A DNA stretch of 64,000 nucleotides from an uncultured Planctomycetota bacterium. Its GTDB lineage: Bacteria; Planctomycetota; Planctomycetia; Isosphaerales; Isosphaeraceae. A model generated the notes under the pieces. It worked only from the letters and a program-made list of their open reading frames with translations, made no database searches and was not told the origin of the DNA. Within the stretch, counting starts at the first letter, position 1, and each line of letters begins with the position of its first letter. A program made the translations under genes and the position numbers. The stretch is taken from positions 1,888,001 through 1,952,000 of the forward strand of contig CAWGMQ010000010.1 in NCBI GenBank assembly GCA_963823665.1, given 5' to 3'. Of this stretch, positions 10,119 to 35,500 are shown one piece after another.

Positions 10119-10210
10119 AGAGCCGGGCCGGCCCCGGCCTGCTCGGGGCGGCCGAAGCAGCTAAGCCTTTCGCCGCCTCTTGCGGCGGCGTGAAAGGATG
10201 TGGGTGGACG

Positions 10211-11579
10211 ATGCTCCCGCTGGACGACTTCATCGCGCACGTCGCCGCGTCGGGACTGGTTGCGCCGGAGGTGCTGGCGCAAGTGCGCAGCCAGATTGAA
10301 CCCGAGCCGGCGGGTGAGGCGTCCGTGCGCCTGGCGCGGCGGCTGCTGGAGCACGGCTGGTTGACGAGCTACCAAGCGAAGAAGCTCCTCGGTGGTGCCA
10401 CCCGCGGGTTTTTTCTGGGCGGATACCGGCTGATGAGACCGATCGGAGAAGGGGGGATGGGGAAGGTGTACCTGGCGATCGACGATCGCCGGGACCAGGT
10501 GGCGATCAAGGTGCTGCCGCCGCGAAAAGCGGTGGCGGAAGAGAACGCACTGCGGCGCTTTCGCCGCGAGATGGAGCTATCGCAGCGCTGTGTGCACCCG
10601 AATCTGGCCCGCACGCTTGCGGTCGGGAGCGATGGCGATGTGCATTTCATGGTGATGGAGTACATCCCGGGGAAAAGCCTCTTCGACCTCGTCAAGAATG
10701 AAGGGCTCGGTCCGCTCCGCGTACCCGATGCCGCCAAAATCTTCCTGAAGGTTGTCGACGGCCTCGAAGCGGCGCATGGCGCGGGCTTGGTGCATCGCGA
10801 TATCAAGCCGTCGAACATCATGATCACTCCGCTGGGCGAAGCGAAGCTGCTCGACCTGGGTCTTGCGCGCGCACTGGACGACGAGAAGGGGCTCACGCGT
10901 GCCAACACGGTGCTGGGCACGCTCGACTACGCGAGCCCGGAGCAGCTTCGCGACGCGGCCAAGGCCGACGCCAGGAGCGACCTGTACAGCCTGGGATGCA
11001 CGCTCTACTTCGCTCTTGCGGGGAGCCCGCCGTTTGAGGGGGGCGACATCATCAACAAGATTTACAAGCAGCGGATGGAGGACCCGCCGCCTCTCGAGAG
11101 CCGGGCGCGCGGCGTGCCCGCCGCATTTGCAGCGGTCGTGCGCAAGTTGATGAGCAAGAATCCCGACGAGCGGTATCAAAATGCGGCCGAGTTGCGCGGA
11201 TCTGACGCGCTGGACCGACCCGACACGGGTCCGCGCGATCCTGGGGGCTGAAGCGGACGCCGCCCGGAGTTTTCGACCGCCGCCGCCTGAGCTCGGTGAA
11301 GATGACCTTCGCCTCCTCGACGACGAATCGACCGTGAGCAGAGACCAGGTCTCGATCCGGGACCTCGGCGGCGCGGAGCCGTCGGTTGCTCCCCGCCATC
11401 AAGCACCTGAAGCCCCCATGCGTGCATTGGTGCGTCATCGGGAACCGTCCGAGTCCATGCACCGTCCATTTCCACAGTCGGGCAACGGCGACACGCGCTG
11501 GCTGGTTCATTTTGCGATCATCGCGGCGGCAACGGGGCTGATTGCCATCCTGATCATCGCGCTCTTTCTCCGATCTTGA
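10211..11579 (+). CDS. Ser/Thr protein kinase with C-terminal TM helix (frameshift near 11200)
   Basis: GEGGMGKV, VAIK, HRDIKPSN, DLG, GTLDYASPE; continuation ORF 11181-11579 ends in a hydrophobic helix. Confidence 0.9.
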
Positions 11580-11661: not shown

Positions 11662-11886
11662 ATGCTAAAGGTTGATTCTGGATCGGTTTCCGCCTCTTGT
11701 GTCGACAGTCGTGCTGAACGACCGGGCAATGCGGAGGTTCCCGCGGTGGTGGAAGTTGGGTTGCTGATGCCTGCACATTGGGCAGCCGCGTTGATTGAGC
11801 TGTCAAAGGTACGACAGGTGAGCGTCGCCCAGATTTTGCGCGCGTCCGTTGCACAAACTTTGCGCGATGTTGGGGTGGCTGTGTAA
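11662..11886 (+). CDS. Small hypothetical protein, possible ribbon-helix-helix DNA-binding protein
   Basis: VVEVGLLMP..WAAALIELSKVRQVSVAQILRASVAQTL has a strand-helix-helix pattern. Confidence 0.55.
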   Translation: MLKVDSGSVSASCVDSRAERPGNAEVPAVVEVGLLMPAHWAAALIELSKVRQVSVAQILRASVAQTLRDVGVAV

Positions 11887-12420: not shown

Positions 12421-15111
12421 ATGCGTTCGACCGTTTCTGGGATCACTCCAAGCGAGGTAGCTTCAGGCAATGAGACCGAAGCCAAGCTGGCTCGACTTTG
12501 GGCGAACGTGCTCCGGCTCGACCACGTCGTTCACCACGACAACTACTTCGCTCTGGGCGGAAACTCGCTGATGGCTGTGAGTCTGATCGCTCGGATCGAG
12601 GCTGAATTCGGGGTAAGGCTGCCGCTGACATCGATTATCCAAGCTCCGACTGTCCGTGAGTTTGCTCGGCTGCTCGAAACCGGCGGGTCGCATGAGCCCG
12701 TCGTGCTGGTGCGGGCCGGGAGCGGTGAATGGCCACTGTTCCTGGTTCACGACGCCGATGGCGAAACGATCCTGTATCGCAGCCTCGCGTTCAACCTGAA
12801 TCCGACGCAATCCGTCTATGGTCTCCAGCCCTACAGTCAGCCGAGCCATCCGATGCTGCATACGCGCATCGAGGAGATGGCGGCCTACCACATCACGAGC
12901 ATGCGGAAGATTCAGACGCGTGGTCCATATCTACTCGGCGGACTGTGCGCCGGGGGCATCATCGCCTTCGAGATAGCCAGGCAACTCGAGCGAGCCGGTG
13001 AAACGGTGGCGATGGTCGCGCTCATGGACGCCGCGGACGTCGCCGCGAAGGAACAGCCGATTCGATTTGCCAAGAAAAGGCTCGAACGACTGTCGGCCGC
13101 ACTTCGCGAGGGGCATGATGTCGGGAAACTGCGCCGCGTTGCGCAGGCGGCACGGGTGATCATGGGGAAAGCCGTCAGCTTTAGCCGCTACGCGATCTCG
13201 AGCCGGGTTGGGGCGATCCGCAATCAGGCCACGGTGAGCTCGTTCCGGCTTTGCTTGAAGCTCGGTGTCCCCGTTCCTGCTTTCGTTCGTAACATACCCG
13301 TCAGAACGTTATACAACGAGGCCAAACGCTTCTACCGGCCTTTGACTCCGATCCGCGGCGAGCTGTTGCTGCTGAGGGCATCGAGCGGCGTTGGCGACGA
13401 TGCACCGCACTCACATCGCTGCGCTGATCCGCTCATGGGGTGGGAGCCGCGCACGACACACGGAGTGAAGGCCTTCGACGTTCCCGGCGGCCATTCGAGC
13501 ATGCTCCAGGAGCCAAACTCTCGAATGGTCGCGGAGATCATCGAGAAGTACGTCGATTCCGCCGCAGAGCGTCTGATGGTCGGATCGAAAAAGGCCGGAG
13601 CGGCGGTTGATAACGCCGCGTCAGGGAGTGTTCCTCGCCACGGAGTCGTCGATTCGGTATCCGCTCAACCCAACGGGAAACCTTCTGAACTCGTGAGCAA
13701 GGTGCCCGCCACAACCTACAAGTTCTTGCTCTTGTCGGCGAGCAGCCGCGATCAGCTTGAATCCGCCTCGGCCCGGCTGGCCGGCTATCTTGATCGCGAT
13801 GCCGAGACGGAGCCATCCGATGTGACCGAGATTGCGGCCGCAGGAACAAACCAATCAGGGTGGCGCCAGGCGGTTGTAGGTGCGAACCGTGCCGAGCTGG
13901 TCGAGCGGCTGCGTAAGGGGATTGGCCCGGGGGTCTGGACGAGCTCCGAGCGGGTCGTCCGCAGGGACGTGGCGTTCATCCTCGCCGGCGTAGGAGAGCA
14001 GGGGGCGGGGGTCGGACGCGATCTTTACGATGCGGAGCCGGCCTTCCGCGACGCGGCCAACGACTGTGCAGACCTCGTGAAGCCAATTCTGGGCCGGGAC
14101 CTGCGCGAGGTGGTGTTTGCAGCCCGGCAGTCGACGGGGGGCTGGCTCCGGGGTGGAAACAGCGGCGTGCTCAAGGAGACGCAGGTCGCGCAGCCCGCGG
14201 CGTTCATCCTTGACTGGGCACTGGCCAGAATGTGGATGAACTGGGGTGTCAGGCCATCTGCGGTGCTCGGCTACAGCGTGGGCGAGTACGTTACCGCGGC
14301 GCTGGCCGGAGTCGTGGCGATGAATGACAGCCTCACGATGCTGGCCAGACGGGCACAGTGGATCGATCAGCTCGCGGAACCGGGCGTCATGCTGGCGGTG
14401 GCGGCCGGTGAGGCGGACGTCTCGCCTCGACTGGGGGACGGGGTCTGGCTTGCGGCGGTTAACAGTCCGCAGGCAACGGTCGTTGGCGGACGTTCGGAAT
14501 CGATCGAGCGACTGGAGGGCGAGCTGCAGTCAGCCGGGTTCGCGACGCGCCGGGTGGTCTCGATGCACGGGACCCACACGCCGTTGCTCGACGCGGTGAG
14601 GGGGAACCTGCTGCGCCTGGCCGAGGGAATATGGCACGCCCCGCCACAGATCCCGATGCTTTCGAATGTCACCGGAACCTGGCTCACCGCGGCGGATGCC
14701 GAGGACTCCGGCTACTGGGGCGCGCACATGTGCGGAACCCTGCGTTTCGAGGCGGCGATTGCCGAATTGCTGCAGGCGCAGGACAGGGTGCTGCTGGAGA
14801 TCGGTCCTGGGGCCGGCCTGGGTGCGATGGTCCGCCAGCACCCATTGTGCAGCAGAGACCAGGCGGCGCGCACGTTTTCAAGCCTGCCATCGGCGTGGGA
14901 CCGGGCGAGCGAGCGGGAACACGTCGCGGGCACGCTCGGCAGGCTGTGGGTAGCCGGAGTGGATATCGACTGGAACTCTGTCACGACGGGAAGGAAACGA
15001 CAACGCGTGGCGCTTTGGGACGTCTCGGCCGAGGAGCAACCGATCGTGGCGGATTGCGGGCTGGAAGCTGTCAACAGTGGCGAATCTCTACGTTTCACCG
15101 GTCAAGGGTGA
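12421..15111 (+). CDS. Multidomain protein: carrier (PCP/ACP) - thioesterase-like - KS/AT linker - acyltransferase; no KS domain
   Basis: LGGNSL phosphopantetheine site; PLFLVH, GGLCAGG, PGGHSSML (TE); AQPA, GYSVGE, AAVNSP, SNVTG, LEIGPG, LGRLWVAG (PKS AT). Confidence 0.9.
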   Translation: MRSTVSGITPSEVASGNETEAKLARLWANVLRLDHVVHHDNYFALGGNSLMAVSLIARIEAEFGVRLPLTSIIQAPTVREFARLLETGGSHEPVVLVRAGSGEWPLFLVHDADGETILYRSLAFNLNPTQSVYGLQPYSQPSHPMLHTRIEEMAAYHITSMRKIQTRGPYLLGGLCAGGIIAFEIARQLERAGETVAMVALMDAADVAAKEQPIRFAKKRLERLSAALREGHDVGKLRRVAQAARVIMGKAVSFSRYAISSRVGAIRNQATVSSFRLCLKLGVPVPAFVRNIPVRTLYNEAKRFYRPLTPIRGELLLLRASSGVGDDAPHSHRCADPLMGWEPRTTHGVKAFDVPGGHSSMLQEPNSRMVAEIIEKYVDSAAERLMVGSKKAGAAVDNAASGSVPRHGVVDSVSAQPNGKPSELVSKVPATTYKFLLLSASSRDQLESASARLAGYLDRDAETEPSDVTEIAAAGTNQSGWRQAVVGANRAELVERLRKGIGPGVWTSSERVVRRDVAFILAGVGEQGAGVGRDLYDAEPAFRDAANDCADLVKPILGRDLREVVFAARQSTGGWLRGGNSGVLKETQVAQPAAFILDWALARMWMNWGVRPSAVLGYSVGEYVTAALAGVVAMNDSLTMLARRAQWIDQLAEPGVMLAVAAGEADVSPRLGDGVWLAAVNSPQATVVGGRSESIERLEGELQSAGFATRRVVSMHGTHTPLLDAVRGNLLRLAEGIWHAPPQIPMLSNVTGTWLTAADAEDSGYWGAHMCGTLRFEAAIAELLQAQDRVLLEIGPGAGLGAMVRQHPLCSRDQAARTFSSLPSAWDRASEREHVAGTLGRLWVAGVDIDWNSVTTGRKRQRVALWDVSAEEQPIVADCGLEAVNSGESLRFTGQG

Positions 15112-15173
15112 GTCATTCCAATCGCCGCGGCGAGGCCGGGGCGATCGAATTCTTCAACATGGAGCATCAACGC

Positions 15174-15434
15174 ATGAGCCTTGACGACATCAAACGGAAA
15201 ACCAAGTCTTTCATTTCAGGCAGTTTCCGGAACTTTGACCTCAAAGATGACGACGATATCTTTTCCCTCGGCCTGGCTAATTCGCTTTTCGCGATGCAAC
15301 TGGTGATGTTTGTCGAGAAGGAATTGGAAGTGAAGGTGCATGACGACGATCTCGACATCGATAACTTCCGCACCGTCAATGCGGTCACGGGCCTCGTGAC
15401 GAGGAAACTCGCGGCTGTGCAGGCCGTCGCCTGA
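15174..15434 (+). CDS. Stand-alone acyl carrier protein (FkbJ-like)
   Basis: DDDDIFSLGLANSLFAMQLVMFVEKE..DLDIDNFRTVNA, the NSLFAM type seen in extender-unit ACPs. Confidence 0.9.
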   Translation: MSLDDIKRKTKSFISGSFRNFDLKDDDDIFSLGLANSLFAMQLVMFVEKELEVKVHDDDLDIDNFRTVNAVTGLVTRKLAAVQAVA

Positions 15435-15621
15435 CGATCGAAGGCATTGTGCGGCGGGTGCTCACGCCCGGCGCTGCCCGCGCGCCGGAGGCTTTCGGAC
15501 GCGGTTTCAAGACCTATACTCGAGCGCGACGCTCGGGGCTCCGGCCCCATTCTGCGCACTGCGCTAGCCAATGAGACCCAAACTTTGAGGCGCGATTGCT
15601 GCCGCTCGAAAGAAGGGCGGA

Positions 15622-16786
15622 ATGGCTCGCGAGTTCGTGATGAGACCGGAGTTGAGCGCTGCTCAGAAAGATGCACAGGCACGCTATCGTGAATTCGTGC
15701 AGGCGGAGATCACACCCCACGCGGATCGATGGGACAGCGAGGGGCGGATACCGCCGGAGCTGATAACCCGCATGGGACGGGAGGGGTATCTCGGTGCTTT
15801 CGTGCCGGCAGAACGCGACGGGCGCGGCATGGATATGGTGACCTTCGGCATCCTGAACGAGGAAGTCGGGCGTGGCTGCTCGTCGGTGCGCAGTCTGCTT
15901 ACAGTCCACGGGATGGTCGAGCACGCCATCCTGCGCCTGGGGGAGCGAGGAGCAGAAGAAGCGTTGGCTGCCGCGGCTGGCGACGGGCGAGGTGATCGGG
16001 GCGTTCGGGCTGACCGAGCCCGGTGCCGGCAGCGATGCCGCTGGAGTTGAGACCAGCGCCACGCGATCCGAGGGATCGTACACCTTGAATGGAACCAAGG
16101 TGTGGACTTCGTTCGGCCAGATCGCGGATGTCGTGCTCGTCTTTGCACGGCTGGAAGGCAAGATGACCGCGTTCCTGGTCGAGACGCGGAGCCCCGGTTT
16201 TTCTACCACCCCGACCACCGGGCTACTGGGTACGCGAGCAGCCATGCTGGCCACTCTCCGGATGGAATCCTGCGCGATCCCCAAAGAAAACTGCATCGGC
16301 GGCCCTGGGTTCGGATTGAGCGCAGTCGGCTCGGCGGCGCTGGACATCGGCCGCTACAGCGTTGCCTGCGGCAGCGTTGGCATCGCCCAGGCCTGCCTCG
16401 ATGCCTCGATCAAATATGCTGCTTCACGCGAGCAATATGGCAACTTGCTCATGGACCACCAGCTCATCCGGAAGATGATCACCGAAATGGCCGTGAACGT
16501 GAGCGCGGCACGAAGCCTTTGCTATCGCGCCGGCTATCTCAAGGACACCGGTGATCCGCGGACCCTGCTCGAGACGCTGATGGCCAAGTACTTCGCGTCT
16601 CGGGTTGCCGTGCAATCCTCCAGCGACGCAGTGCAGATTCACGGTGCCAACGGGTGCGGCGGCGATTACCCCGTGCAACGCTACTATCGTGACTCCAAGA
16701 TCATGGAAATCATCGAAGGCAGCTCGCAAATCCTCGAGATCAACATTGCCAAGCAGTTCTGTGACGTCTATGGAGGCGCATCATGA
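15622..16786 (+). CDS. Acyl-CoA/acyl-ACP dehydrogenase (FkbI-like; frameshift near 15940)
   Basis: GRGCSSVRSLLTVHGM, AFGLTEPGAGSD, LNGTKVWTSFG, AVQIHGANG, MEIIEGS. Confidence 0.9.
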
Positions 16787-17844
16787 GTTCCGGTTCCGCC
16801 GTGGCGCACGTCGATGAAGTGTCAGAACAGGCAGTGAAATGCCTCGTCTGGGATCTCGACAATACACTGTGGGACGGAATCTTGCTCGAGGATCCGGACG
16901 TCCTGCTGCGGCCCGAGGTGCTCAATTTGCTCCGTGCGCTCGACGAGCGCGGCATCCTGCATTCGATCGCGAGCCGCAACGATCCTGAGGACGCTTTGAA
17001 GAAGCTGAGGGAGTTCGGACTCGCGGATTATTTTCTCCATCCGCAGGTAAACTGGAATCCCAAGTCCGAGTCCATCAAGGCCATCTCCGAGAATCTGAAG
17101 CTTGGCCTCGATACGTTCGCGTTCATCGACGACCAGCCGTTCGAGCGCGCCGAGGTCTCGTTCGCACACCCGAACGTGCTGTGCATCGACGCCACAGAGT
17201 TGACCACGATTCCCGACATCCCGCGGATGCATCCGCGGTTCATCACCGACGAATCGAGGACACGGCGGCACATGTATCGCAGCGACGAGCGCCGGCAGGA
17301 GGCGGAGAAAGAGTTCACCGGCACGAACCAGGAATTCCTGGCCGGCCTGAAAATGGTCTTCAGCATCTCAAATGTGGGCGAGTCTGACCTCAAGCGCGCC
17401 GAGGAATTGACCGTCCGGACCCACCAGTTGAATACGACCGGCTACTCGTATTCATACGAAGAACTCGACGCGTTGCGCGATTCGCCGGACCATCTTCTGC
17501 TCATCGCCGGACTGGATGACGTGTTCGGCACATATGGCAAGATCGGGCTTGCGGTTGTCGAACTGGGGCCGGAAGTCTGGACGATCAAGCTGCTTTTGAT
17601 GTCGTGCCGGGTCATCGCGCGCGGAGTGGGCGGCGTATTGCTCTCACGGATCATGAATCTGGCGAGGGACGCGGGAGCAAAGCTCCGCGCCGATTTCGTG
17701 TCGAATGACCGCAACCGAATGATGTACATCACCTACAAATTCGCAGGCTTCCGTGAAGTCGAGACGAGAGGCAGGGTATCCGTGCTCGAGAACGATCTCG
17801 AGAAGGAACAGGCGTTCCCGGACTACATCAAGGTGCACGTCTGA
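16783..17844 (+). CDS. fkbH: FkbH-like HAD-IIIC glyceryl-ACP synthase
   Basis: KCLVWDLDNTLWDG, SIASRN, FIDDQPFER, RTHQLNTTG, LLMSCRV (conserved Cys); ATGA overlap with the upstream gene. Confidence 0.92.
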   Translation: MSSGSAVAHVDEVSEQAVKCLVWDLDNTLWDGILLEDPDVLLRPEVLNLLRALDERGILHSIASRNDPEDALKKLREFGLADYFLHPQVNWNPKSESIKAISENLKLGLDTFAFIDDQPFERAEVSFAHPNVLCIDATELTTIPDIPRMHPRFITDESRTRRHMYRSDERRQEAEKEFTGTNQEFLAGLKMVFSISNVGESDLKRAEELTVRTHQLNTTGYSYSYEELDALRDSPDHLLLIAGLDDVFGTYGKIGLAVVELGPEVWTIKLLLMSCRVIARGVGGVLLSRIMNLARDAGAKLRADFVSNDRNRMMYITYKFAGFREVETRGRVSVLENDLEKEQAFPDYIKVHV

Positions 17845-17926
17845 CGCCCCTGCGGGAAAGGCTCTCAGCCACGCGGGCAGCGTCGCATCGACCGAATTGA
17901 TTGTTAACTACATCGGGGCCTTGGTC

Positions 17927-18961
17927 ATGAAACTCTACATTGTGATCCTTTGTTATCGAGTGCCCGATCTGACGATCGATTGTCTGCGCTCGCTCAGCAG
18001 CGAGATCGGGAAGGTACCCGGGGCAAAGGTGGGCCTTCTCGAAAACGGTTCCGGCGGCGACTGCGCGGAACGGCTCCGCCAGGCGATCCGCGAGAACGGC
18101 TGGGGATCTTGGGTTGAACTGACAACAGTCCTCGTGAACCTCGGCTTCACGGGGGGAAACAACCTGCTGATCCGCGACGCGTTCCAGTCTGCCGATCCGC
18201 CCGAGTATGTCCTCCTGCTGAATTCCGACACAATCGTCTGGGAGCACGCGCTTGATGCCCTTGTCGATTTCATGGACAGCCACCCGCGGGCGGGAACCGC
18301 CGGCAGCCGAATGCTCAACCCCGACGGCAACGTAAGGGCTTCGCCGTTCCGCTTCCCGGGCGTTCTCACCGAGTTCGATCGCGGACTGAGATTGGGGATC
18401 GTCTCGAAGCTCATGTCTCGCTGGGCCATCGAGCCGCCCAAGCCCCAGCAACCCACCAAGGTCGACTGGGTCTCCGGGGCAAGCATGATCCTCCGGCGAA
18501 CGATGCTGGAAGAAATCGGATTGCTCGATGAGGGGCTCTTCACCTACTTTGATGATGCCGATCTGGGCATCCGGACGAAGCGAGCTGGGTGGGAGACGTG
18601 GTATGTTACTCAGAGCCCCGTCGTCCATCTCGGCGGAGCCTCGACTGGCTTGACTGCGAAGGCCGTGGCGCGACGCCCGGCTTACTGGTATCAGGCCCGC
18701 CGCCGGTTCTTTTTGAAGAACTACGGCAAGATTCGCACAGCACTCGCCGATGTCGCATTCATTACCGGGTATGCGCTCTGGCGCCTCAGGCGAATCATCG
18801 AGCGCAAGGCCGTTCGGGACCCGGAGTACATGCTGCTTGACTCGATCCATCAGAGCGTTTTCTGGGCGGGATTCCGCTTGAATACGGTCGAGAACCCGGC
18901 GCTCAAGGAAGCGAACCCGTCCACGGAGTCAAGTGGCAAGTCAGTCGGCGCCTCCGCGTGA
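17927..18961 (+). CDS. Glycosyltransferase family 2
   Basis: IVILCY, ENGS, NLGFTGGNN, LLLNSDT, DWVSGASM, LDEGLFTYFDDAD, VVHLGGAS. Confidence 0.92.
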   Translation: MKLYIVILCYRVPDLTIDCLRSLSSEIGKVPGAKVGLLENGSGGDCAERLRQAIRENGWGSWVELTTVLVNLGFTGGNNLLIRDAFQSADPPEYVLLLNSDTIVWEHALDALVDFMDSHPRAGTAGSRMLNPDGNVRASPFRFPGVLTEFDRGLRLGIVSKLMSRWAIEPPKPQQPTKVDWVSGASMILRRTMLEEIGLLDEGLFTYFDDADLGIRTKRAGWETWYVTQSPVVHLGGASTGLTAKAVARRPAYWYQARRRFFLKNYGKIRTALADVAFITGYALWRLRRIIERKAVRDPEYMLLDSIHQSVFWAGFRLNTVENPALKEANPSTESSGKSVGASA

Positions 18962-19083
18962 CCGCGCGCTAGGGCTCAACGAGCGCGACGTTTGCGTCGG
19001 ATGGCATCAACCGTCATGGCGCCACCTCGAACTGCACCGCGCGTCGGGATCTTTCTTCTTTTGAAATTGAAAGGGGCGAGTTC

Positions 19084-19746
19084 ATGCGCATCAAGTGGTA
19101 CGGCCACGCAGCGTTTCTCGTGGAAACCCAGGGGTTGCGAGTCATTCTCGACCCTTACCGCTCTCCCGATTCAGGGGGCTATCTGCCGATTGACGAACCG
19201 GCCGATCTGGTGATTGTCAGCCACGAGGAAGATGTTTACCACAGCCATATCGGGCAGATCGTCCCGCCTTTCGAACACGTCAAAGCACTCGAAATACCCG
19301 AGGGGGGTGAGGTGAAGAGGGGCATTCGATTCGAGACGGTCCATGTCTACGAGCACGCTGATCGCAAGCCGGAGGAGAAAGTCACGATCATTCACTTTCG
19401 CTCGGAGGGCATGCACCTGGCCTTTCTGGGCGATCTAGGACATTCGCTCACCGAAGAGGAAGTCGCGCCGCTGCGAGGGGCGGAGATCGTGTTGATCCCG
19501 GCCGGAGGGCCGCCGACGATCGACTACCCTGATATTCCCCCACTCATTGCCGAGATCGGTCCTCGGCTGGTTATCCCGATGCACTTCAAGACGCGCAAGA
19601 TCAACCTCAACATCAAGCCGGTGATCAAGTTCCTCGAAGCGATGCCGGGTGAACCGGTCCTCCGGATTGGTACGAGCTCGATCGACGTCACGCTGGATAC
19701 GCTTCCGGCAACCCGGACCATCATGGTCTTGGATTACGCGAGATGA
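19084..19746 (+). CDS. MBL-fold metallo-hydrolase-like protein
   Basis: WYGHAAF, LDPY, VSHEEDVYHS (degenerate HxHxDH), FLGDLGH, VIPMHF. Confidence 0.85.
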   Translation: MRIKWYGHAAFLVETQGLRVILDPYRSPDSGGYLPIDEPADLVIVSHEEDVYHSHIGQIVPPFEHVKALEIPEGGEVKRGIRFETVHVYEHADRKPEEKVTIIHFRSEGMHLAFLGDLGHSLTEEEVAPLRGAEIVLIPAGGPPTIDYPDIPPLIAEIGPRLVIPMHFKTRKINLNIKPVIKFLEAMPGEPVLRIGTSSIDVTLDTLPATRTIMVLDYAR

Positions 19747-19866: not shown

Positions 19867-20586
19867 TCAGTCTTCCTCCACGTAGCGCCATTTCTCGGTG
19901 AGTTTCCGCTTATAGGACAGTGCGTAGTACGCGTAATAGCCCGGGGGCCTTCGTCCGCTCCGCTCGAAGCCGGAATGGCCGCCTTGACTGGGATCCGTGA
20001 TCAAGCGGATGCCGCCCGTGAAGACGTTGACATCCGAGCCGACGATTCGGAAGGCACCCGCCCACTCGGGATCTGTGACGGGATTGCCGCGGCCAACTCG
20101 GTCTGCGAGTCGGTCGAGGGCTGGTTGCGAGGCCAGGAACGCGAGCTGAAAGGGCCACTGGCAAACCAGCATCGTGAGTGGGGCGAGCGTAAGGACCAAG
20201 TTGATCGTCCGCCGCAAAACGCGCGATCGTAAGGAGATCAAGGGTGCGCGATCGGGTGGCCTGGACCAAACTGCGCCGAAGCCGAACGTCAATGGCATGC
20301 CGAGGGCGCACGCGCACATCGAGATCAGAACCCCGACAAGCCAAGAAGAACAGATTGGTGCAACGAAGCAAGTTGTGTTTGTGACGATGGCCGCGGTGGC
20401 GAACCCGAGGGCCGAGACTCGGCGAAATGGGCGGGCGGCGAGCCAGAGGCCGCGCGTAAGCGCGAAGCACGATGCCAGCAGACCGCAGCCGAGCACCTGG
20501 GAAAACGCGGCCTGAGAGCGCGTCGCGAAGAGCACCACCGCGGCTGCGGCGATCATCAGCATGATTGTCCGGAGCTTGAATCGCAT
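19867..20586 (-). CDS. Hypothetical multi-pass membrane protein, tandem paralog A
   Basis: MRFKLRT N-terminus, several hydrophobic helices, C-terminal domain shared with 20727-21443. Confidence 0.85.
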   Translation of the reverse strand: MRFKLRTIMLMIAAAAVVLFATRSQAAFSQVLGCGLLASCFALTRGLWLAARPFRRVSALGFATAAIVTNTTCFVAPICSSWLVGVLISMCACALGMPLTFGFGAVWSRPPDRAPLISLRSRVLRRTINLVLTLAPLTMLVCQWPFQLAFLASQPALDRLADRVGRGNPVTDPEWAGAFRIVGSDVNVFTGGIRLITDPSQGGHSGFERSGRRPPGYYAYYALSYKRKLTEKWRYVEED

Positions 20587-20726: not shown

Positions 20727-21443
20727 TCAGTCTTCCTCCACGTACCGCCATTTCCCGGTGAGTTTCAGATCATAGGAAAGATTGTAAAACGGGCCGTTGC
20801 CTGGAGGTGCTGGTCCGCGCCGTTCGAAGCCGGATCGGCCGCTGGCGTTGGGGTCCGTGATCAAGCCGACGGCGCCCGTCACTGTGTTCCGATCTGATCC
20901 AACGATTCGGAACACGCCCGCCCATTCGGGGGTCGTGACGGGATTCCCGGCGCCGACTCGGTCGGCGAGGCGCTCGAGCGAGGGTTGCGATGCCAGGAAC
21001 GCGAGCCGGAAGGGCCACGGGGTGAGTAGCATAGTGATCGGGGCGAGCGACAGCGCGAGTGTGGTCGCCCATCGGAGAACGGCCTGACAGGTGATGGCCC
21101 GCGTGCGGCCGGGCGGAGTCGACCAAGCCGCGCCGAATCCGAATGTGATAGGCATTGCGAAAACACACAGTAACACGAGGATTGCGATACGCGGGAACAA
21201 CGAAAAAGCGACAGAGGAAACGAGCGCTGTCGCGTTCATCGAGCTGGCTGCGACGGCGAACCCCAAGGCAGAAACGCGCTGAAACGGGCGGGCGGATTGC
21301 CAGAGTCCGCGAGCCATGGCGAGGCACGATGTCAGCAGGCCGCCGACGATCAGGACGGCAAACAGGGTTTCGTCGCGCATCGCGAGAAGCAGGAGAGCGG
21401 CTGCCGCGATCACGAGCATGATCGTCCGAATCTTGAATCTCAT
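20727..21443 (-). CDS. Hypothetical multi-pass membrane protein, tandem paralog B
   Basis: MRFKIRT N-terminus; WPFxLAFLASQP..RLADRVG..PEWAG..KWRYVEED shared with paralog A. Confidence 0.85.
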   Translation of the reverse strand: MRFKIRTIMLVIAAAALLLLAMRDETLFAVLIVGGLLTSCLAMARGLWQSARPFQRVSALGFAVAASSMNATALVSSVAFSLFPRIAILVLLCVFAMPITFGFGAAWSTPPGRTRAITCQAVLRWATTLALSLAPITMLLTPWPFRLAFLASQPSLERLADRVGAGNPVTTPEWAGVFRIVGSDRNTVTGAVGLITDPNASGRSGFERRGPAPPGNGPFYNLSYDLKLTGKWRYVEED

Positions 21444-21723: not shown

Positions 21724-24700
21724 ATGGACGACGGTTCGGTGGCACCGACTGAGCTCGACATGTTTCACCCGGCGGTGGCGTCGTGGTTCTCCGAACGCTT
21801 CGGTGAGCCGACGCTCGCACAGCGACTGGGTTGGCCGGCGATCGCGTCGGGTCAGAATGCCCTGATCGTGGCGCCGACGGGATCGGGCAAGACGCTGGCG
21901 GCGTTTCTGGCGGCGCTCGATCACCTCTGGAGGAATCCGCGGCCCAAGCCGGGTGTTCGCATCCTTTATGTCTCACCGCTGAAGGCTCTGAACGAAGATA
22001 TCTGGAAGAACCTCCAGGTTCCCCTCGAGGAGATTCAAGCACGTTCTCGAGACATGGGCAATCCGCTGCCGGTGTTGCGGGTGGCGGTGCGAAGCGGTGA
22101 CACGCCGAGTCACGAACGCGCGGCGATCGTGCGCAAGCCGCCCGACATCTTGATCACGACGCCGGAATCGCTGCATCTGATGCTGACGAGCCGGGCGCGG
22201 GAGATCCTGCGCGGAGTCTCGCACGTGATCGTCGACGAGATTCACGCGGTTTGCCCCAACAAGCGGGGAGTATTTCTGGCGCTTCTCCTCGAACGGCTCG
22301 AAGCCATCAATCCGCAGGGCTTCGTCCGGATCGGGCTTTCGGCCACGCAGCGGCCGCTCGAGGAAGTCGCTCGGTATCTGGGAGGAATCTCTCGCGGTGG
22401 CGGCCAAGCGGGGGAGCAGGCGCCGGGGTTTCGGCCGGTCACGATCGTCGATACGGGCTTCCGGCGCGACCTCGACCTGGAGGTACTCTGGCCGCGGACC
22501 CTGGGGCGCAAGGTCGTCGCGGGCACGATCTGGCCGGAGATTGAAGACCGACTGCTGGCGCTCGTCGGCGCGCACCGGTCGACGATCATCTTCGCCAACA
22601 ATCGGCGGACGGTAGAAAAGTTGACGGCGCGGCTGAATGTGCTGGCGGATCCGACTTGTGACGATGAAGCCGAGGTGCAAGGTGTGCCGCCCGGTGAGGA
22701 CACCGTTGCTGGCTCGCGACGGTTTCGCGCGCATCATGGAAGCATCAGCCTGCCAGAGCGACGGGCGACAGAAGAGGCGCTCAAAGCGGGTGAGGTGCCG
22801 GCGGTGGTGGCGACGGCCTCGCTCGAGCTTGGCATCGACATGGGGGCGGTCGATCTGGTGTGTCAAATCGAGTCGCCGGGGAGTGTTGCTCGCGGATTGC
22901 AGCGAGTGGGGCGAGCCGGCCATGTGGTGCGGGGGGTGAGCAAGGGGCGATTGATCGCCAAGACGCCGGGCGATTTGCTGGAATCCGCGGCGCTCTGCCG
23001 CGCGATGCTCGAGGGCGAGATCGAGCGGCTCACGGTGCCCCAGAACTGCCTCGATGTGCTGGCGCAGCAAGTTATCGCTTGTGTGGCGATGGAGCCCTGG
23101 GACGTTCCGGCGCTGTTCGACCTGGTCCGATCGGCCTATCCGTTCCACGGGCTCTCGGCCGAGTCGTTCGAGAGCGTGCTGCGGCTGATCTCCGGGCGAT
23201 ATCCGACCCCGGAGCTGCGCGATCTGCGCGCAGAGTGGTGTGGGACCGGATCCACAACCGGCTTTCCTCGCTGCCGGGCACCGCGCAGCTTGCGCTTGTG
23301 GGAGGCGGGACGATTCCCGACACGGGCCAGTATCCGGTTCATCTCGGGGCAGGGGGGCCGCGGCTGGGCGAGCTGGACGAGGAGTTCGTTTACGAGCGGC
23401 GCGTCGGTGAGACATTCTCCCTGGGCAACGCGAGCTGGCGAATCGAGCAGATCGAGCCCCATCGCGTGGTGGTGTCGCGCGCGGCCGGGCACACGGCGGT
23501 GATGCCGTTCTGGCGGGGGGAGAGTGCGGCACGCTCGAGCGAGCTCGGCGAAGCGATCGGGAGGCTCTGCCGCGAGTTCTCCGAAGGGCTGGACGACCCG
23601 CAATCGCTCGGCCGGCTCGAAGCGGAGTGCCGGCTGGCACCGCAGGCGGCCCGGGCGCTGCGCGAGTACCTGGCCCGGCAGAGGCGGCTGGCCGGCGCGG
23701 TGCCGGATGATCGGACGGTACTGGTCGAGACGTTCGTCGACCCCGCGGGCGAACAGAGCCTGGCTGTGCTCTCTCCCTTCGGCGGGAGGCTTCATCACGC
23801 GCTCAAGCTCGCTCTTTCGGGTATGATTCGCCGGCGGCTGGGCTTTTCGCCCGCGTGTCTGCATTCCAACGACGGACTGTTGTTTCGCCTGCCAAACATG
23901 GACGAGCCGCCCTTGGACCTGTTCGACGAGTTGACACCGGAATATGCCGAGCGGTTGATTCGTGAAGAACTTCCGGAGACGGCGCTCTTCGGGCTGCGGT
24001 TTCGCCAGAACGCCGCCCGATCCCTTCTTTTGCCGCGCCCGAACCCGGCCAAACGTACGCCGCTCTGGCTTCAAAGGCTGAGGGCCAAGGACTTGCTGCA
24101 GATCGCCAGGGGAATCCCTGACTTTCCGATCGTTCTTGAAACGGTTCGCGAATGCCTGGACGACGATCTCGATGTTCCAAGGCTGCGGCGCTTGCTGGGG
24201 GCAATTCAATCGGGTGACGTTCGGGTCCAGACGCGGCGCGGCGAGATTCCATCGCCGTTTGCGTCCGAATTGATCTTCGAGTTCACCGCGGCGCACCTCT
24301 ATGAGTGGGATGAGCCGAAGCGGGGCGACCTTCCGCCGGCGGGATCGGTGTTCAACGACCAGATGCTCGAACCGCTGCTGCGCGGGGGTGCTCCTCCTGA
24401 TTGGCTCGATCCCCAGGCCGTGGGTAGGGTGGAGAACCGGTTGCGGCATCATGGATTTCCTCCGCGCAGCGTCGAAGAGATGGCTGAACGACTGAGGCTG
24501 CTGGGTGACATCACAGATTCCGAGCTGTGCGGGCCGATGGCGGCGTTCCTGGCCGATCTGGAGCAATCGGACCAGGCCGTGCGGATCGAGCTTGCCCTAA
24601 CGCGAGAGCCGGAGCGATGGATTCTCGCCGAGGAGGCCGGCCGCTACGGTGCGGCCTTCCCGGGGACATCGAGCGGTGACCACGAAGCGCGGGCGGCGAT

Positions 24701-26252
24701 CGTCCGCCGGTTCCTGCAGACCCATGCGCTGGTTGCGCTGGTCGATCTGAGCGCTCGCTACCCGATCGATCCGGTTGAAGCGGCCGAGCTTCTGGAGCAC
24801 TGGTGCGACCAGGGCGAGGTTGTGCGGATTGGCGAAGGCACACCGGCGGGCCAGTCGCAGTGGGCCGAGCGCGCGAACCTGACCGAGATGCGCCGAGCGA
24901 CAGTGGCGGTTCGCCGCCGTGAGAGTATTGCGGTGTTGCCCGAGGTTTTCGCCGATTGCCTGCTGCGGCGGCAGCACGTTCATCCGGCATCGCGCCGCGA
25001 GGGATCAAGTGGGGTCGAAATTGTCCTCGAACAACTGCAAGGCTACGCGGCACCAGCGTTTCTCTGGGAAACTGAGCTTTTGCCGAGCCGTGTGAAGGAC
25101 TACCGTCCCGCATTGCTGGATGAAGTCCTCTCGCGAGGAAACTGGTTCTGGCGGGCGGAAGGTGCCCTCGCGGAGGAGACGCGGGTCGCGTTTTACTCGC
25201 GTGCGTTCCCGGCTCTTTCGCCACTGTCGGCGCCCGCTCTTGAACTGGCGGCGCCGGAGAGGCTGATTTTGGATTTGCTGGACCGGCACGGGGCGAGCTT
25301 CGCCGTCGACCTGGCGAGGCTCTCGGGTCTCGGGCCGTCCCAGACTCGGGGAGCGCTCCGAGGTCTCTTGCGGCACGGGCTGGTGACCAACGACCGATTC
25401 GACCCGGTCCGCGGCGGGTCCGACGCAACTCTGGACGCGTTATCGGAGGCACGCGCGGGACGGCATTCGAGACTCGGCAGAAGTGCGCGGGTGGGGCGCC
25501 GGGCGGCGTCTGCTGTGCCCGAGGGTCGTTGGTGGCGTCTCAACGGCCAGGAGACCAGTGCCGTTGCCGTGCTCCAGTGGTGGGTGGAGGTGCTTATCGA
25601 TCGATACGGCGTGCTGGCACGCGAAGTGGTCGCGCTCGAGCCGTCGGCCCCGTCGTGGGGGAGCTGCGCGCCGATTCTTGCGAAAGCGGAGTGGCGGGGA
25701 GAGATACGCCGGGGCTACTTCGTAGAAGGTCTTTCCGGGCTACAATATGCCTCGGCGCAAGCTGCTTCTGAGCTCGCTCACGCAGGCGCCCGGAGCGGGG
25801 TTGCGGACACGCCCCGGAACGGCTCTGCGGGGATCGCTGCAGCGTCGCCGTCGGCATCGCTCGCTGTGGTCTGTGCCGCCGATCCCGCCAACATTTACGG
25901 GTCGGGTGCACCGCTGGATATTGAGCTTCTTGAAGGCGGCGTTGCGCGGCTGCCTCGTAGCGGCGGGAACTACCTGGTGGTGCGCGACGGCCGGCCGGTG
26001 TTGATTGTCGAAGCGCAGGGCAAGCGACTGACCGGGCTTCCCTGGTCCGAGCGTGCTGATATCGATCGGGCGCTCGAGCTCTTGCCAGCCGTTCTGGGAA
26101 AGAGCCGAAAGATCCTGAAGATTGAGACATATAATGGCCGGCCTGTCGCCGACAGCCCCGTCGCAGGCCGGCTCGGTGAGATTGGATTTGTTCGCGACTA
26201 TCCAGGAATGACATTCTACGTGGGGTGGCCCGTGGCACCGCTGCGGGCATGA
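21724..26252 (+). CDS. lhr: Lhr-family ATP-dependent helicase (frameshift near 23230)
   Basis: APTGSGKT, YVSPLKAL, TTPES, DEIH, LSAT, AHHGS, ASLELGID, QRVGRAGH, GGTIPD, GELDEEF, RRGYFVEG. Confidence 0.92.
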
Positions 26253-32509: not shown

Positions 32510-35500
32510 TCAACCCTTCTTCGTCGTTTTCTTCGTTGTGGCCGCCTTGTGCTTGGGTGCCGCCGGCTTGGTCACGTGTTTGACGACGATGTGTTTGACC
32601 GGTTTCGGGTGGACGACCACGTGGGGCTTCTTCTTGTGATGAAGTGGTCCTTTGGGCGCGGGTGCCGGCGTGGGCGAGGGAGTTGGTGCAGGGGCCGGGC
32701 TGCCGACAGTGCCGCTTCCTGTTCCGGTCGTGGTTCCTCTCGTCCCGGTTGTGGTTCCTCCCGTCCCGGTGGTCGCGCCGCCGCTGCCCGTCGAGCCCGA
32801 GCCCGAGCCGCCCGATGACGTGCTCGACCCGACGCTCAAGACCGCATAGTCGGAGTAGCCGGTCAGTCCGGCACCTTTAACGCTCTGGACCGTGTCGGCA
32901 GGCAGCGACACGCTGAGCGTGCCCGAGGTGTTGAAGTTCCCGGTCAGGTTGAATCGCACTGTATCGGCGTCGATCCACGTCAGGCTCGTGGCGTGGGCCG
33001 GGTCCATCGTTTGCACGGCCGTTCCGGACAGCACGAGATCGGTCGCATTGATGCCGGCCTGGTTGACGTTCTGGGAGAACGTGACCGTGACCGATGTCGG
33101 CGCCGTCGAAACGTTGAGAGTCTGGCCGTTTGCCTGGAACTCGCCGGTAATGGGTACCAGGGACGTGCTCAGCACGCGGAACGCACCGCCCAGCGGTATA
33201 CCACCGGTGCCGTTGAACTCGAACGCACCAATGTCGCGTGGTCCGTAATTGGCGAATCCGAACCCGCCGCCCGAAATCTTCACTTGGGAGTTACCGAGCA
33301 GGTCGGTCGTGATGGCCGTCGGCTCCCACGCGTTGTCGATCGCCGCTGAAGCCGAGGTCACCTGGAAATCGGCGTCAAGGAAGAAGTTCGCAGGGCCGTC
33401 GGAACCCGGTCGGGCGTCCACCGGGAAGACAAAATTCGGGTTCCCGACGAAGTTGCCCTGGTTGCTGAGTGCGTCCTGACCGGTTGTGCCCAGAAGCAGC
33501 GGATTGAACCCGTTCTGAACGGTGTTGACCACCGCGGTCTGCCCGCTGTCGCTGGCACCGTTCGAGTAGAACAGGTTGTTCTGCATGTTGATCTTGTTCG
33601 GGTTGGTCGAAAAGATCGCAAAACCCGACCTGGCCAGCGTCTGGTCGTGATTCTGCCAGAAGATGCTGCTGGCGACGTAGGCCTGAGTCGGCGTCGTCAG
33701 CGTGTTCGAGAGCGAGAGTCCAACTGTGTTGAAGACAAAGTCGTCGTTGATCAGGCTGACGGGGCTGACCGACGCGCTCGTCAAGCCGCCGTCGGTGATG
33801 GTGACACCGTCGATGTTTCCGTCCACGACGTCGTTCACGAGTTGCGGCGTCATCGCGCCGGAACCTGACGTCGTGATCGCGACGCCGGCCCCAGCGTCCA
33901 CAATGTAATCTTTGTCGACGAAGATGTTGGAGTTGTCGATGGATAGCGCGATGGAGTTGGGGTTGATCGAGCCGTTTGCCGGGTCGCCGACCAACGGGCT
34001 GGCGATCGAGAAGCCGGCGATCTCCGTTCTCAGACCGGAGAAGCTCTCCACGTTCGTCGCGGATACTGTGGCGTAGAGGCCCGCGGGTGCAGTTGCCACG
34101 AACGGAGCGCGGATGATCGTCGAGAGGGCGTCTCCAGTGCTCGTCGTGAAGACCGTGCTGTCGGTGCTCGTCGGGTCCGCCGAGAGCAACCGAACGAACT
34201 GCTTCATCGTGACCTGCTCGGTATAGACGCCCGGCAAGACCGCCACGACGTCGCCGGCGGCAGCCGCTGTCATGGCCGCGCCGATCGTCGGATAGGGGTT
34301 CTCCCGCGTGCCGATCACCGCCGTCGGGTTCGTGATGTATTGTGGTCCGCCGACGAAGAAGTTCTGCTGAAGCGCCGGCACGTCGACGATGAACTGCTGG
34401 CTGGCGGCAGGCGTCGCGACGTTGCCCGCGATGTCGCGAACGGCGTCCGGCCCCGTGCTGAGCAGCGTGACCTGATAGAGATTGTTGGTCAGCGTGCCCT
34501 CGGACGAGAACTGGATCTCCTCTCGACCCTTGCCGCCGGTGACCGTATCGAGCAGCGTGAACTTGATCGAATTGGGGTCGATCGGAATCGTCACGTCGTC
34601 CGCGTCGCCGAGGATTCCGTCAGGGCCGGCATTGATCAACTGGATCGACTGCGCCGTGAAGTGCGTCTGGTCGATGTTCTTGTTGCTGAAGACCGTGAAG
34701 TTGATCTCGCCGCTCGAGTTCAAACTCGTGATGACCTGGTCGGTCGTCGGCGATGAGACCGTGAGAACCGGCGGCGTCGTGTCGACGACAAACGGCAACT
34801 GAGCGTTGGGATCGGTGGGGCTGGACTCGTTGCCACTCTGGTCGATGATCTGCACCCGAGCGACGTAATAGCCGCTGTCGTCGCCAGGAACAGGCGAGAG
34901 CAAGCCGTCTGGCCCGACGTTGTAAAGTGGGAAGAGGTTGGGAAGCGGGTTGGTGTTGGTCACGAGTCCGGTATTGGCCGCGTCGATTCCGACCGTGACC
35001 TGGAACGCGCCACCTGTGCCCGAGAGGGCTGTGCCCGCGTCCGGCCGGATGTACTGCGCCAGACTCGCTTCACTGCTGGGAAGCGTGGTCGGGTCGAAGT
35101 ATTCGGTCAGTACGCCGTTGACGTCCACGGCGACGCCGATTTCGAGAATCGCTGTTTGACCGGCGAGCGGCACGAGCTGCGCGTTCGGCTCACTCACCGT
35201 ACCGTCAAAGGTCGGTAGCGTCGTGCTGGTAATCTCGTCTCCGATGATGTTCGTGTCGCTGGCCGGATCGAGCGTGAGCGAGCCGGCCAGAACCGACGGC
35301 GGCGTGGTGTTGATGATGAACGAGTCGAAGAAGTTGCCGCCGGGGTAGCCGTTGCCCGAAGGCAGAGCCAACTGGGCGCCGGTCGGGCTGTCGCCGACGG
35401 TGTTTTCACCGTCCAGGGCGATGCCCTGCGGGCTCGTGAGCACCGGTGAGCCGCTGCCGAACAGCTCGATCTGGTAGGCGTCGGTGCTGAGCGTGAGGCC

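Follow-up and report, generated by a model that had tools for sequence, protein, structure and literature searches.

What does a compact set of acyl-carrier and acyl-transfer genes do when it includes no ketosynthase (KS) and stands beside a glycosyltransferase? The question is raised by six genes in a 64,000-nucleotide stretch of DNA (the window; positions 1,888,001 to 1,952,000 of contig CAWGMQ010000010.1, here C10, assembly GCA_963823665.1) from an uncultured planctomycete of the family Isosphaeraceae, whose genome (G000) is 16.5 Mb and 92% complete. They encode a fused carrier (T)-thioesterase (TE)-acyltransferase (AT) protein, a discrete acyl carrier protein (ACP), an acyl-ACP dehydrogenase (ACAD), the glyceryl-ACP loader FkbH, a family 2 glycosyltransferase (GT2) and a metallo-beta-lactamase (MBL)-fold hydrolase. 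A first-pass annotation of this DNA had proposed that the genes form a relay placing an acyl group on a glycan or lipid rather than extending a polyketide. Our analysis makes this direction likely, on the strength of a conserved KS-less unit and of a TE tied to glycosyltransferases by adjacency and fusion. Gene content, gene order, intact catalytic residues, conservation and carrier-TE ancestry are established; to the reading that the six genes form a conserved KS-free carrier relay, by which a membrane-bound surface glycan receives an oxidised acyl group derived from glycerate, we give an even chance.

Searches of the window's open reading frames (ORFs) with Pfam and TIGRFAM profiles matched all six genes, in one orientation on the plus strand between 12421 and 19746, where they had been placed. 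Pfam resolves the fused protein into PP-binding (residues 22-85), Thioesterase (105-376), KS-AT linker (435-497) and Acyl_transf_1 (519-806) domains. That the window holds no KS, condensation or adenylation domain was borne out: the genome has 16 KS, 6 condensation and 25 AMP-binding matches, all of them elsewhere, the nearest KS on C10 lies about 280 kb off, and no linked KS module accompanies the cassette either here or in the two further genomes that carry it complete (G037 and G038, from a family sample of 121 genomes). No FkbG O-methyltransferase occurs in the window, as the first-pass annotation had stated, or at the other two loci, no genome-wide search for FkbG having been made. Pfam finds no MBOAT membrane transferase among the six genes, the cassette includes no exporter gene, and neither the T-TE-AT protein nor the GT2 has a transmembrane stretch. 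FkbH is present in G000 as a single stand-alone copy, and phosphopantetheinyl transferases (PPTases) are encoded in all three genomes. The GC content of the locus is nothing unusual, and a promoter scan (2 sites against 1.5 expected) gave no evidence.

Relatives of the cassette might have shown it to be the broken end of an ordinary cluster of nonribosomal peptide synthetase (NRPS) or polyketide synthase (PKS) genes; what they carry is an intact unit without KS and without fkbK. Among 120 homologues listed for the fused protein, 22 combine T, TE and AT without a KS, that is, 21 besides the window's own copy. The full-length ones among these 21 are about 50-84% identical to the window protein, and the TE residues Cys176 and His358 and the AT motif GYSVG are invariant in the 20 aligned members. 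The order of the six genes, including fkbH, ACP, ACAD and GT2, is identical in G037 and G038, with proteins 54-82% identical to those of the window, and the GT2 is adjacent in all three complete loci. Nonsynonymous differences (pN 0.11-0.30) fall below synonymous ones (pS 0.57-0.81) in every part of the cassette, and judged by these values every gene is under purifying selection. High-scoring AT matches occur in 3 of the 121 family genomes, namely these three, and none was found at 1e-80 in 400 genomes sampled from the rest of the phylum. A gene-order search returned the same family again. Genome and metagenome contigs were also scanned with patterns; the matches listed included no further T-TE-AT locus and were generic NRPS/PKS loci apart from two TE-family loci (L056 and L135). 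Named close homologues found in the searches are from Isosphaeraceae, Isosphaerales and Aquisphaera.

The TE nucleophile is a cysteine, a feature that the first-pass annotation had missed. Across 117 aligned proteins of the TE family, the carrier serine and the TE cysteine and histidine are invariant (117/117), while Asp203 (after β6) and Asp327 (after β7) are each kept in at least 90%; either may be the triad acid, which in the beta-lactone/lactam TEs (ObiF, SulM) has moved to position II. The family is present in 29 of the 121 Isosphaeraceae genomes and also in cyanobacteria and proteobacteria; by motif, 88 of the 117 proteins are FkbH-carrier-TE fusions. The predicted model of the carrier-TE didomain (pLDDT 89) has as its top fold and sequence match AB3403 (4ZXH), an uncharacterised Cys-TE (PMC11298585). 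With AB3403, ObiF and SulM the cassette TE shares the carrier-TE fold and the cysteine nucleophile; it differs from them in having no condensation or adenylation domain, a longer basic lid, an HDxDGET loop and a link to glycosyltransferases, and in lacking the Gln-Cys-Asn motif of SulM, in whose place the T-TE-AT proteins read G-[LM]-C-A-G. The lid, within crude boundaries, has a median length of 107 residues and a charge of +12 (112 of 117 proteins parsed), as against 86 residues and +3.5 in 72 serine-TEs and +8.5 in 8 cysteine-TEs; a lid so long and basic would fit a membrane or anionic acceptor. An Atlas search returned generic thioesterase clusters only.

A quick-method, midpoint-rooted tree of 68 rows drawn from the 117 places the 12 T-TE-AT rows in one clade (SH-aLRT 99) inside the FkbH-T-TE proteins (95), and the carrier-TE half likely descends from a one-piece FkbH-carrier-TE enzyme of glycan loci. 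Such fusions, uncharacterised so far and exemplified by Aquisphaera WP_148599114.1, are about 45-55% identical to the cassette protein over carrier and TE, have the same motifs and the same GT2 partner, and are the likely ancestor; in the cassette the loader is unfused, and AT, free ACP, ACAD and MBL have been added. The nesting suggests that AT, ACP and ACAD joined a line already able to load plain glycerate, an addition that would imply a modified acyl group. In G038 the cassette sits within a locus of exosortase, Wzc-like protein, GT4, GT2, epimerase and ABC-2 transporter genes, and fused and cassette-type loaders share that one glycan locus: immediately after the cassette comes a fused FkbH-carrier-TE gene whose assembled sequence is frameshifted (L219, 8105-11171).

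The association of the TE with the GT2 extends beyond the cassette. The GT2 subfamily, for which no solved structure was matched, is found in 62 of the 121 family genomes, in 26 of 29 TE-positive as against 36 of 92 TE-negative ones, counts in which relatives are not independent. Around 20 TE hits for which stretches were fetched, the GT2 lies inside the stretch in 14, 9-43 kb off on the same contig in 4, and is absent in 2. Adjacency takes the form of an FkbH-T-TE gene between glycosyltransferases in an exosortase locus (Aquisphaera), an NRPS followed by the GT2 (Gloeothece) and an NRPS-PKS-TE line with GT2 and PPTase-like gene (Novosphingobium). Single chains also occur in which the partners are fused: A-T-TE-GT2 (P0111), C-T-TE-GT2 (P0113) and GT4-FkbH-T-TE (P0207). 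G037 itself has, apart from its cassette, an NRPS (C-A-T, C-A-T-TE) that ends in the same TE family and is followed by the same GT2 subfamily (L295, 8649-16816). The Novosphingobium locus (L056, 1-9618), with its NRPS, PKS with Cys-TE, GT2 and PPTase-like gene, recalls in content an orphan roseobacter cluster with NRPS, PKS, PPTase and glycosyltransferase genes (PMC5014874). In the TE-negative genomes inspected the GT2 lies mostly within glycan loci, and its close relatives (60-72%) are fixtures of exopolysaccharide loci without any carrier protein. Judged from these neighbourhoods, the GT2 is a glycan-building enzyme able to work without the TE, and the TE seems to need the GT2 more than the reverse. 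The acceptor is likely, though not certainly, a glycan built by this GT2, since the subfamily also occurs in exopolysaccharide loci free of TE.

The loading half of the cassette resembles the hydroxymalonyl- and methoxymalonyl-ACP cassettes of zwittermicin (ZmaN/D/G/E) and FK520 (FkbH/J/K/I/G), with a stand-alone FkbH, an NSLFAM-type ACP and a ZmaE/FkbI-type ACAD in the order ACP-ACAD-FkbH. The planctomycete cassette differs from these in having neither fkbK/zmaG nor a KS acceptor, and in adding the carrier-TE-AT protein, GT2 and MBL. Its ACP is 70-73% identical to those of G037 and G038 and 46-49% to hydroxymalonyl-cassette ACPs, the corresponding identities to those cassettes being 41-59% for ACAD and 51-65% for FkbH. 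The ACAD groups with the ZmaE/FkbI types (support 90/88), and ZmaE is reportedly active alone in vitro. An fkbK-type gene is present in all six annotated reference cassettes, five of which are ordered fkbK-ACP-ACAD-fkbH; the locus L234 we take to be the Zma cassette from its annotated zmaJ and the gene order of the zwittermicin cluster. Here fkbK is absent from its usual slot, and the search elsewhere in the genome that the first-pass annotation had recommended found no orthologue: the best matches in G000, G037, G038 and G029 (genomes 78-92% complete) reach at most 38% identity, whereas true FkbK orthologues are 52-65% identical to one another across phyla.

The ACAD, noted earlier as translationally coupled to FkbH, overlaps the FkbH start with its stop by ATGA. 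The ACAD reading frame is broken by a one-base frameshift, previously overlooked, for which comparison with the intact genes of G037 and G038 locates one surplus base near 15936-15943. It is probably an assembly error, since splits of this kind also affect a PKS gene of contig C8 and the window's Lhr helicase gene. Two patchy read runs gave no full-match piece across the site among the matches listed. In the Lhr helicase gene (21724-26252, plus strand) the frameshift falls within the WH_Lhr domain, a sign of indel errors in the assembly.

The AT retains a KS-AT linker although the protein has no KS, another point missed at first, and its best solved-structure match is the AT of ZmaA (4QBU). 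With this domain and the GYS-type cis-ATs beside fkbK cassettes it shares the GYSxG motif, the arginine and the KS-AT and post-AT linkers (PMC4207774); it is distinguished from ZmaA by its place after a TE with no KS. GYSxG surrounds the catalytic serine in 20 of 20 T-TE-AT proteins as against 9 of 81 general PKS hits; GYS is carried by ZmaA and ZmaF (PMC4207774) and by one AT of each of five non-Zma reference cassettes where the site aligned. The carboxylate-binding arginine is kept in 19 of the 20. At the RXR site the T-TE-AT proteins read A/V-x-R, the GYS ATs of the reference cassettes ACR, VCR or INR, and ZmaA MCM (PMC4207774). At the YASH site they have HGTH, NGTH or QGSH, not GAAH or HAFH; GPFH is absent too, and the table of PMC4207774 offers no match. 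In the AT tree these domains form a long-branch clade of their own (100/100), and GYS is scattered.

The MBL gene at first looked like a passenger, being present in 106 of the 121 family genomes as a TM0207-like protein of 220 residues with a non-canonical HENDRYHSH motif (L327-L346), a view overturned by a cassette clade and by co-occurrence with T-TE-AT. In a tree of 70 rows, from which the second copies present elsewhere in G000 and G037 were left out, the cassette copies form one clade (SH-aLRT 99), and their metal site is of the HEEDVYH type where the others have HENDRYH. Moreover, 12 of 25 T-TE-AT proteins (one of them that of G037) lie on a contig of exactly the same size as that of a listed MBL, compared with 0 of 96 control TE-family proteins. 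Clade, changed motif and association together assign the MBL to the cassette.

FkbH enzymes load glycerate from 1,3-bisphosphoglycerate onto an ACP, and glyoxalase II provides an analogy for the editing of 2-hydroxyacyl thioesters. In the relay that we envisage, FkbH would charge the free ACP in this manner (pathway in PMC5355916). As FkbK is missing, dehydrogenation by the ACAD to an enediol and aldehyde is the simplest route: the ACAD, a flavin dehydrogenase, would alone oxidise glyceryl-ACP across C2-C3 to 2-hydroxy-3-oxopropionyl-ACP via an enediol, such as has been proposed for the ZmaE step (PMC4207774), and a second round of oxidation would probably yield hydroxymalonyl (tartronyl)-ACP. 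The AT would act as a gate, passing only the modified acyl group to the internal carrier, from which the Cys-TE would take it as a thioester and hand it on to a lipid-linked sugar, one made with the help of the GT2, at a hydroxyl or amine group. Few ATs are known for ACP-borne units (PMC6164871). The Pks13 line passes an acyl chain to trehalose (PMC13324839), and an N-glyceroyl amino sugar occurs in an O-antigen (PMC10609480). The MBL may clear mis-loaded carriers, the weakest step of the scheme. What the hydrolase does, which acyl group is carried and what accepts it are inferred. The ancestral FkbH-T-TE enzyme could presumably deliver plain glycerate already, so that the gain of a free ACP, an ACAD and an AT is best understood if modification of the acyl group comes first and its selection follows. 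More tentatively, and with the balance tilted against it, the carrier-TE(Cys) unit may be a plug-in acyl-to-glycan transferase fed by interchangeable loaders, be it FkbH, an NRPS, a PKS or, in this cassette, an AT with a trimmed set of extender genes; tartronyl or its semialdehyde, made on an ACP by one flavin dehydrogenase without FkbK, may then be bound to a planctomycete surface glycan as an ester or amide of acidic or reactive character.

Several observations weigh against this scheme. Complete neighbourhoods number three, two of them from one genus; the cassettes of G000 and G037 stand alone, the exosortase loci of these genomes being found on different contigs. Many glycan loci have the GT2 but no TE, the GT2 tree does not separate copies linked to a TE from those that are not, and the closest GT2 relative (G007), which clusters with the cassette copies, has no cassette upstream, its contig ending in the gene. 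The window's own ACAD is frameshifted, the grouping with ZmaE/FkbI is unstarred, and oxidation by ACAD alone is unproven because all six reference cassettes carry fkbK. The AT does not have the GAAH of ZmaA, and the carrier motif is half hydrophobic only. Descent of the AT from hydroxymalonyl-specific ATs is not established, given the scattered GYS and the separate long branch. The exosortase-linked polysaccharide locus of G000 (contig C4; L322, 2758-18720), which has no GT2 of this subfamily, is a candidate source of an acceptor in trans.

The free-standing position of the cassette in G000 and G037 would also suit a small glycoside as product, in which the acyl hydroxyl, either still carrier-bound or already free, is glycosylated by the GT2 and a sugar-acid or beta-lactone is set free by the Cys-TE. 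TE-GT2 pairs also stand at the end of NRPS and PKS lines around which the fetched stretch shows no glycan locus, and ObiF and SulM have Cys-TEs that cyclise beta-substituted acyl groups (PMC11298585); the close GT2 relatives in exopolysaccharide loci without a carrier protein, the want of an exporter in the cassette and the absence of the SulM motif nevertheless leave this proposal rather unlikely, if well short of negligible. A second alternative keeps the glycan as target and changes the substituent: the acyl group would be plain glyceryl, or a general 3-hydroxyacyl-CoA dehydrogenase encoded elsewhere would complete a two-step oxidation. General dehydrogenases of this kind, at most 38% identical to FkbK types, exist in each genome, the genomes are incomplete and the window ACAD is split. 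We think it improbable all the same, as true FkbK orthologues stay so much closer to one another, G037 and G038 keep an unbroken ACAD that is subject to purifying selection, and loading of plain glyceryl would be redundant beside the fused FkbH-T-TE gene of G038, itself frameshifted as assembled.

A third alternative is that the cassette makes hydroxymalonyl extender units for use in trans by a PKS encoded at another locus, the TE serving as an editor. This would explain the homology and shared order of ACP, ACAD and FkbH with extender cassettes and the match of the AT to ZmaA. It appears highly improbable, because the two large type I KS loci of G000 have ATs of their own; in addition, the nearest KS on the contig is remote, no FkbK was found, and an internal carrier and an intact type I TE would not be needed. 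That the genes are a decaying remnant of an NRPS/PKS cluster, as the ACAD frameshift, the retained KS-AT linker and the missing fkbK might suggest, is close to negligible in view of the 21 other proteins of the same architecture, their invariant active sites, purifying selection and the dedicated MBL clade.

The DltA/C/B/D system carries out carrier-borne acylation of a surface polymer. On the reading proposed here the cassette would resemble it, and Pks13, in delivering an acyl group from a carrier to a sugar; it differs from both in having no condensation step, no MBOAT, a short glycolysis-derived acyl group and cysteine in place of serine. The literature searched, which had subscription papers and supplements outside its scope and was judged from the entries listed, describes neither carrier-TE-AT proteins nor glycan-locus enzymes of the FkbH-carrier-Cys-TE type, and the words 'FkbH' and 'thioesterase' do not appear in the main text of a Planctomycetota review (PMC12078418) or of epsSMASH (10.64898/2025.12.21.693542); PMC11350588 contained none of the terms sought. 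Within that literature the architecture and the gene set are undescribed, and the chemistry proposed for them is unusual and open to test. Each part belongs to a kind already known, and there are precedents for acylating sugars from a carrier.

Bacterial glycans can bear short hydroxy-acyl groups, to which FkbH-carrier-Cys-TE enzymes are a possible route. The locus poses the questions of whether acyl transfer to sugars can be catalysed by a Cys-TE, whether FkbK is dispensable for an FkbI-type enzyme, and whether a glycan can be the destination of a polyketide extender, repurposed as a sugar substituent, as it would be if the proposed relay is correct. An exit through TE and GT2 could then also explain orphan NRPS/PKS-glycosyltransferase clusters. 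The TE family being common, an answer would annotate many orphan genes that resemble secondary-metabolite clusters and are perhaps builders of the cell surface. Reconstitution is feasible, since T-TE-AT and GT2 have no transmembrane parts and the cassette is compact. The features of the locus are collected in Table 1.

Table 1. Genes and domains of the cassette, with positions in the window
Feature	Position	Strand	Basis
Carrier(T)-TE-AT protein, 896 aa, without KS	12421..15111	+	Pfam; alignment of 20; homologue listing
Internal carrier domain, Ser49 (GGNS)	12484..12675	+	PF00550; Ser kept in 117/117
Type I TE, Cys176 nucleophile, His358, Asp203, Asp327, long basic lid; predicted acyl-transfer domain	12733..13548	+	Alignment, fold model
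KS-AT linker and AT: GYSVG (Ser619), Arg644, HGTH replacing YASH/HAFH	13723..14979	+	PF22621, PF00698
Discrete NSLFAM-type ACP	15174..15434 (alternative start 15159)	+	PF00550
ZmaE/FkbI-type ACAD, frameshifted	15622..16786	+	Pfam, tree, alignment to G037/G038
Stand-alone FkbH glyceryl-ACP loader, DLDNT and SCRV motifs	16783..17844	+	TIGR01686, 262 bits (cut-off 147)
GT2 glycosyltransferase, subfamily typical of exosortase-linked exopolysaccharide loci	17927..18961 (likely start 17927)	+	
MBL-fold hydrolase; cassette-specific paralogue of a family-wide gene	19084..19746	+	

Around the cassette, the window contains some further genes of minor interest. Upstream on the plus strand lie a Ser/Thr kinase (10190-11579), whose C-terminus seems to run on in another frame (ORF 11181-11579) and which adjoins a PP2C phosphatase, and a 74-residue ORF (11662-11886) for a putative small ribbon-helix-helix protein. 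Downstream on the minus strand, two tandem paralogous ORFs of about 238 residues (19867-20586 and 20727-21443) resemble membrane proteins, the first without a Pfam match, and a 1257-residue protein (32510-36283) bears an Ig-like domain (Big_5, by Pfam).

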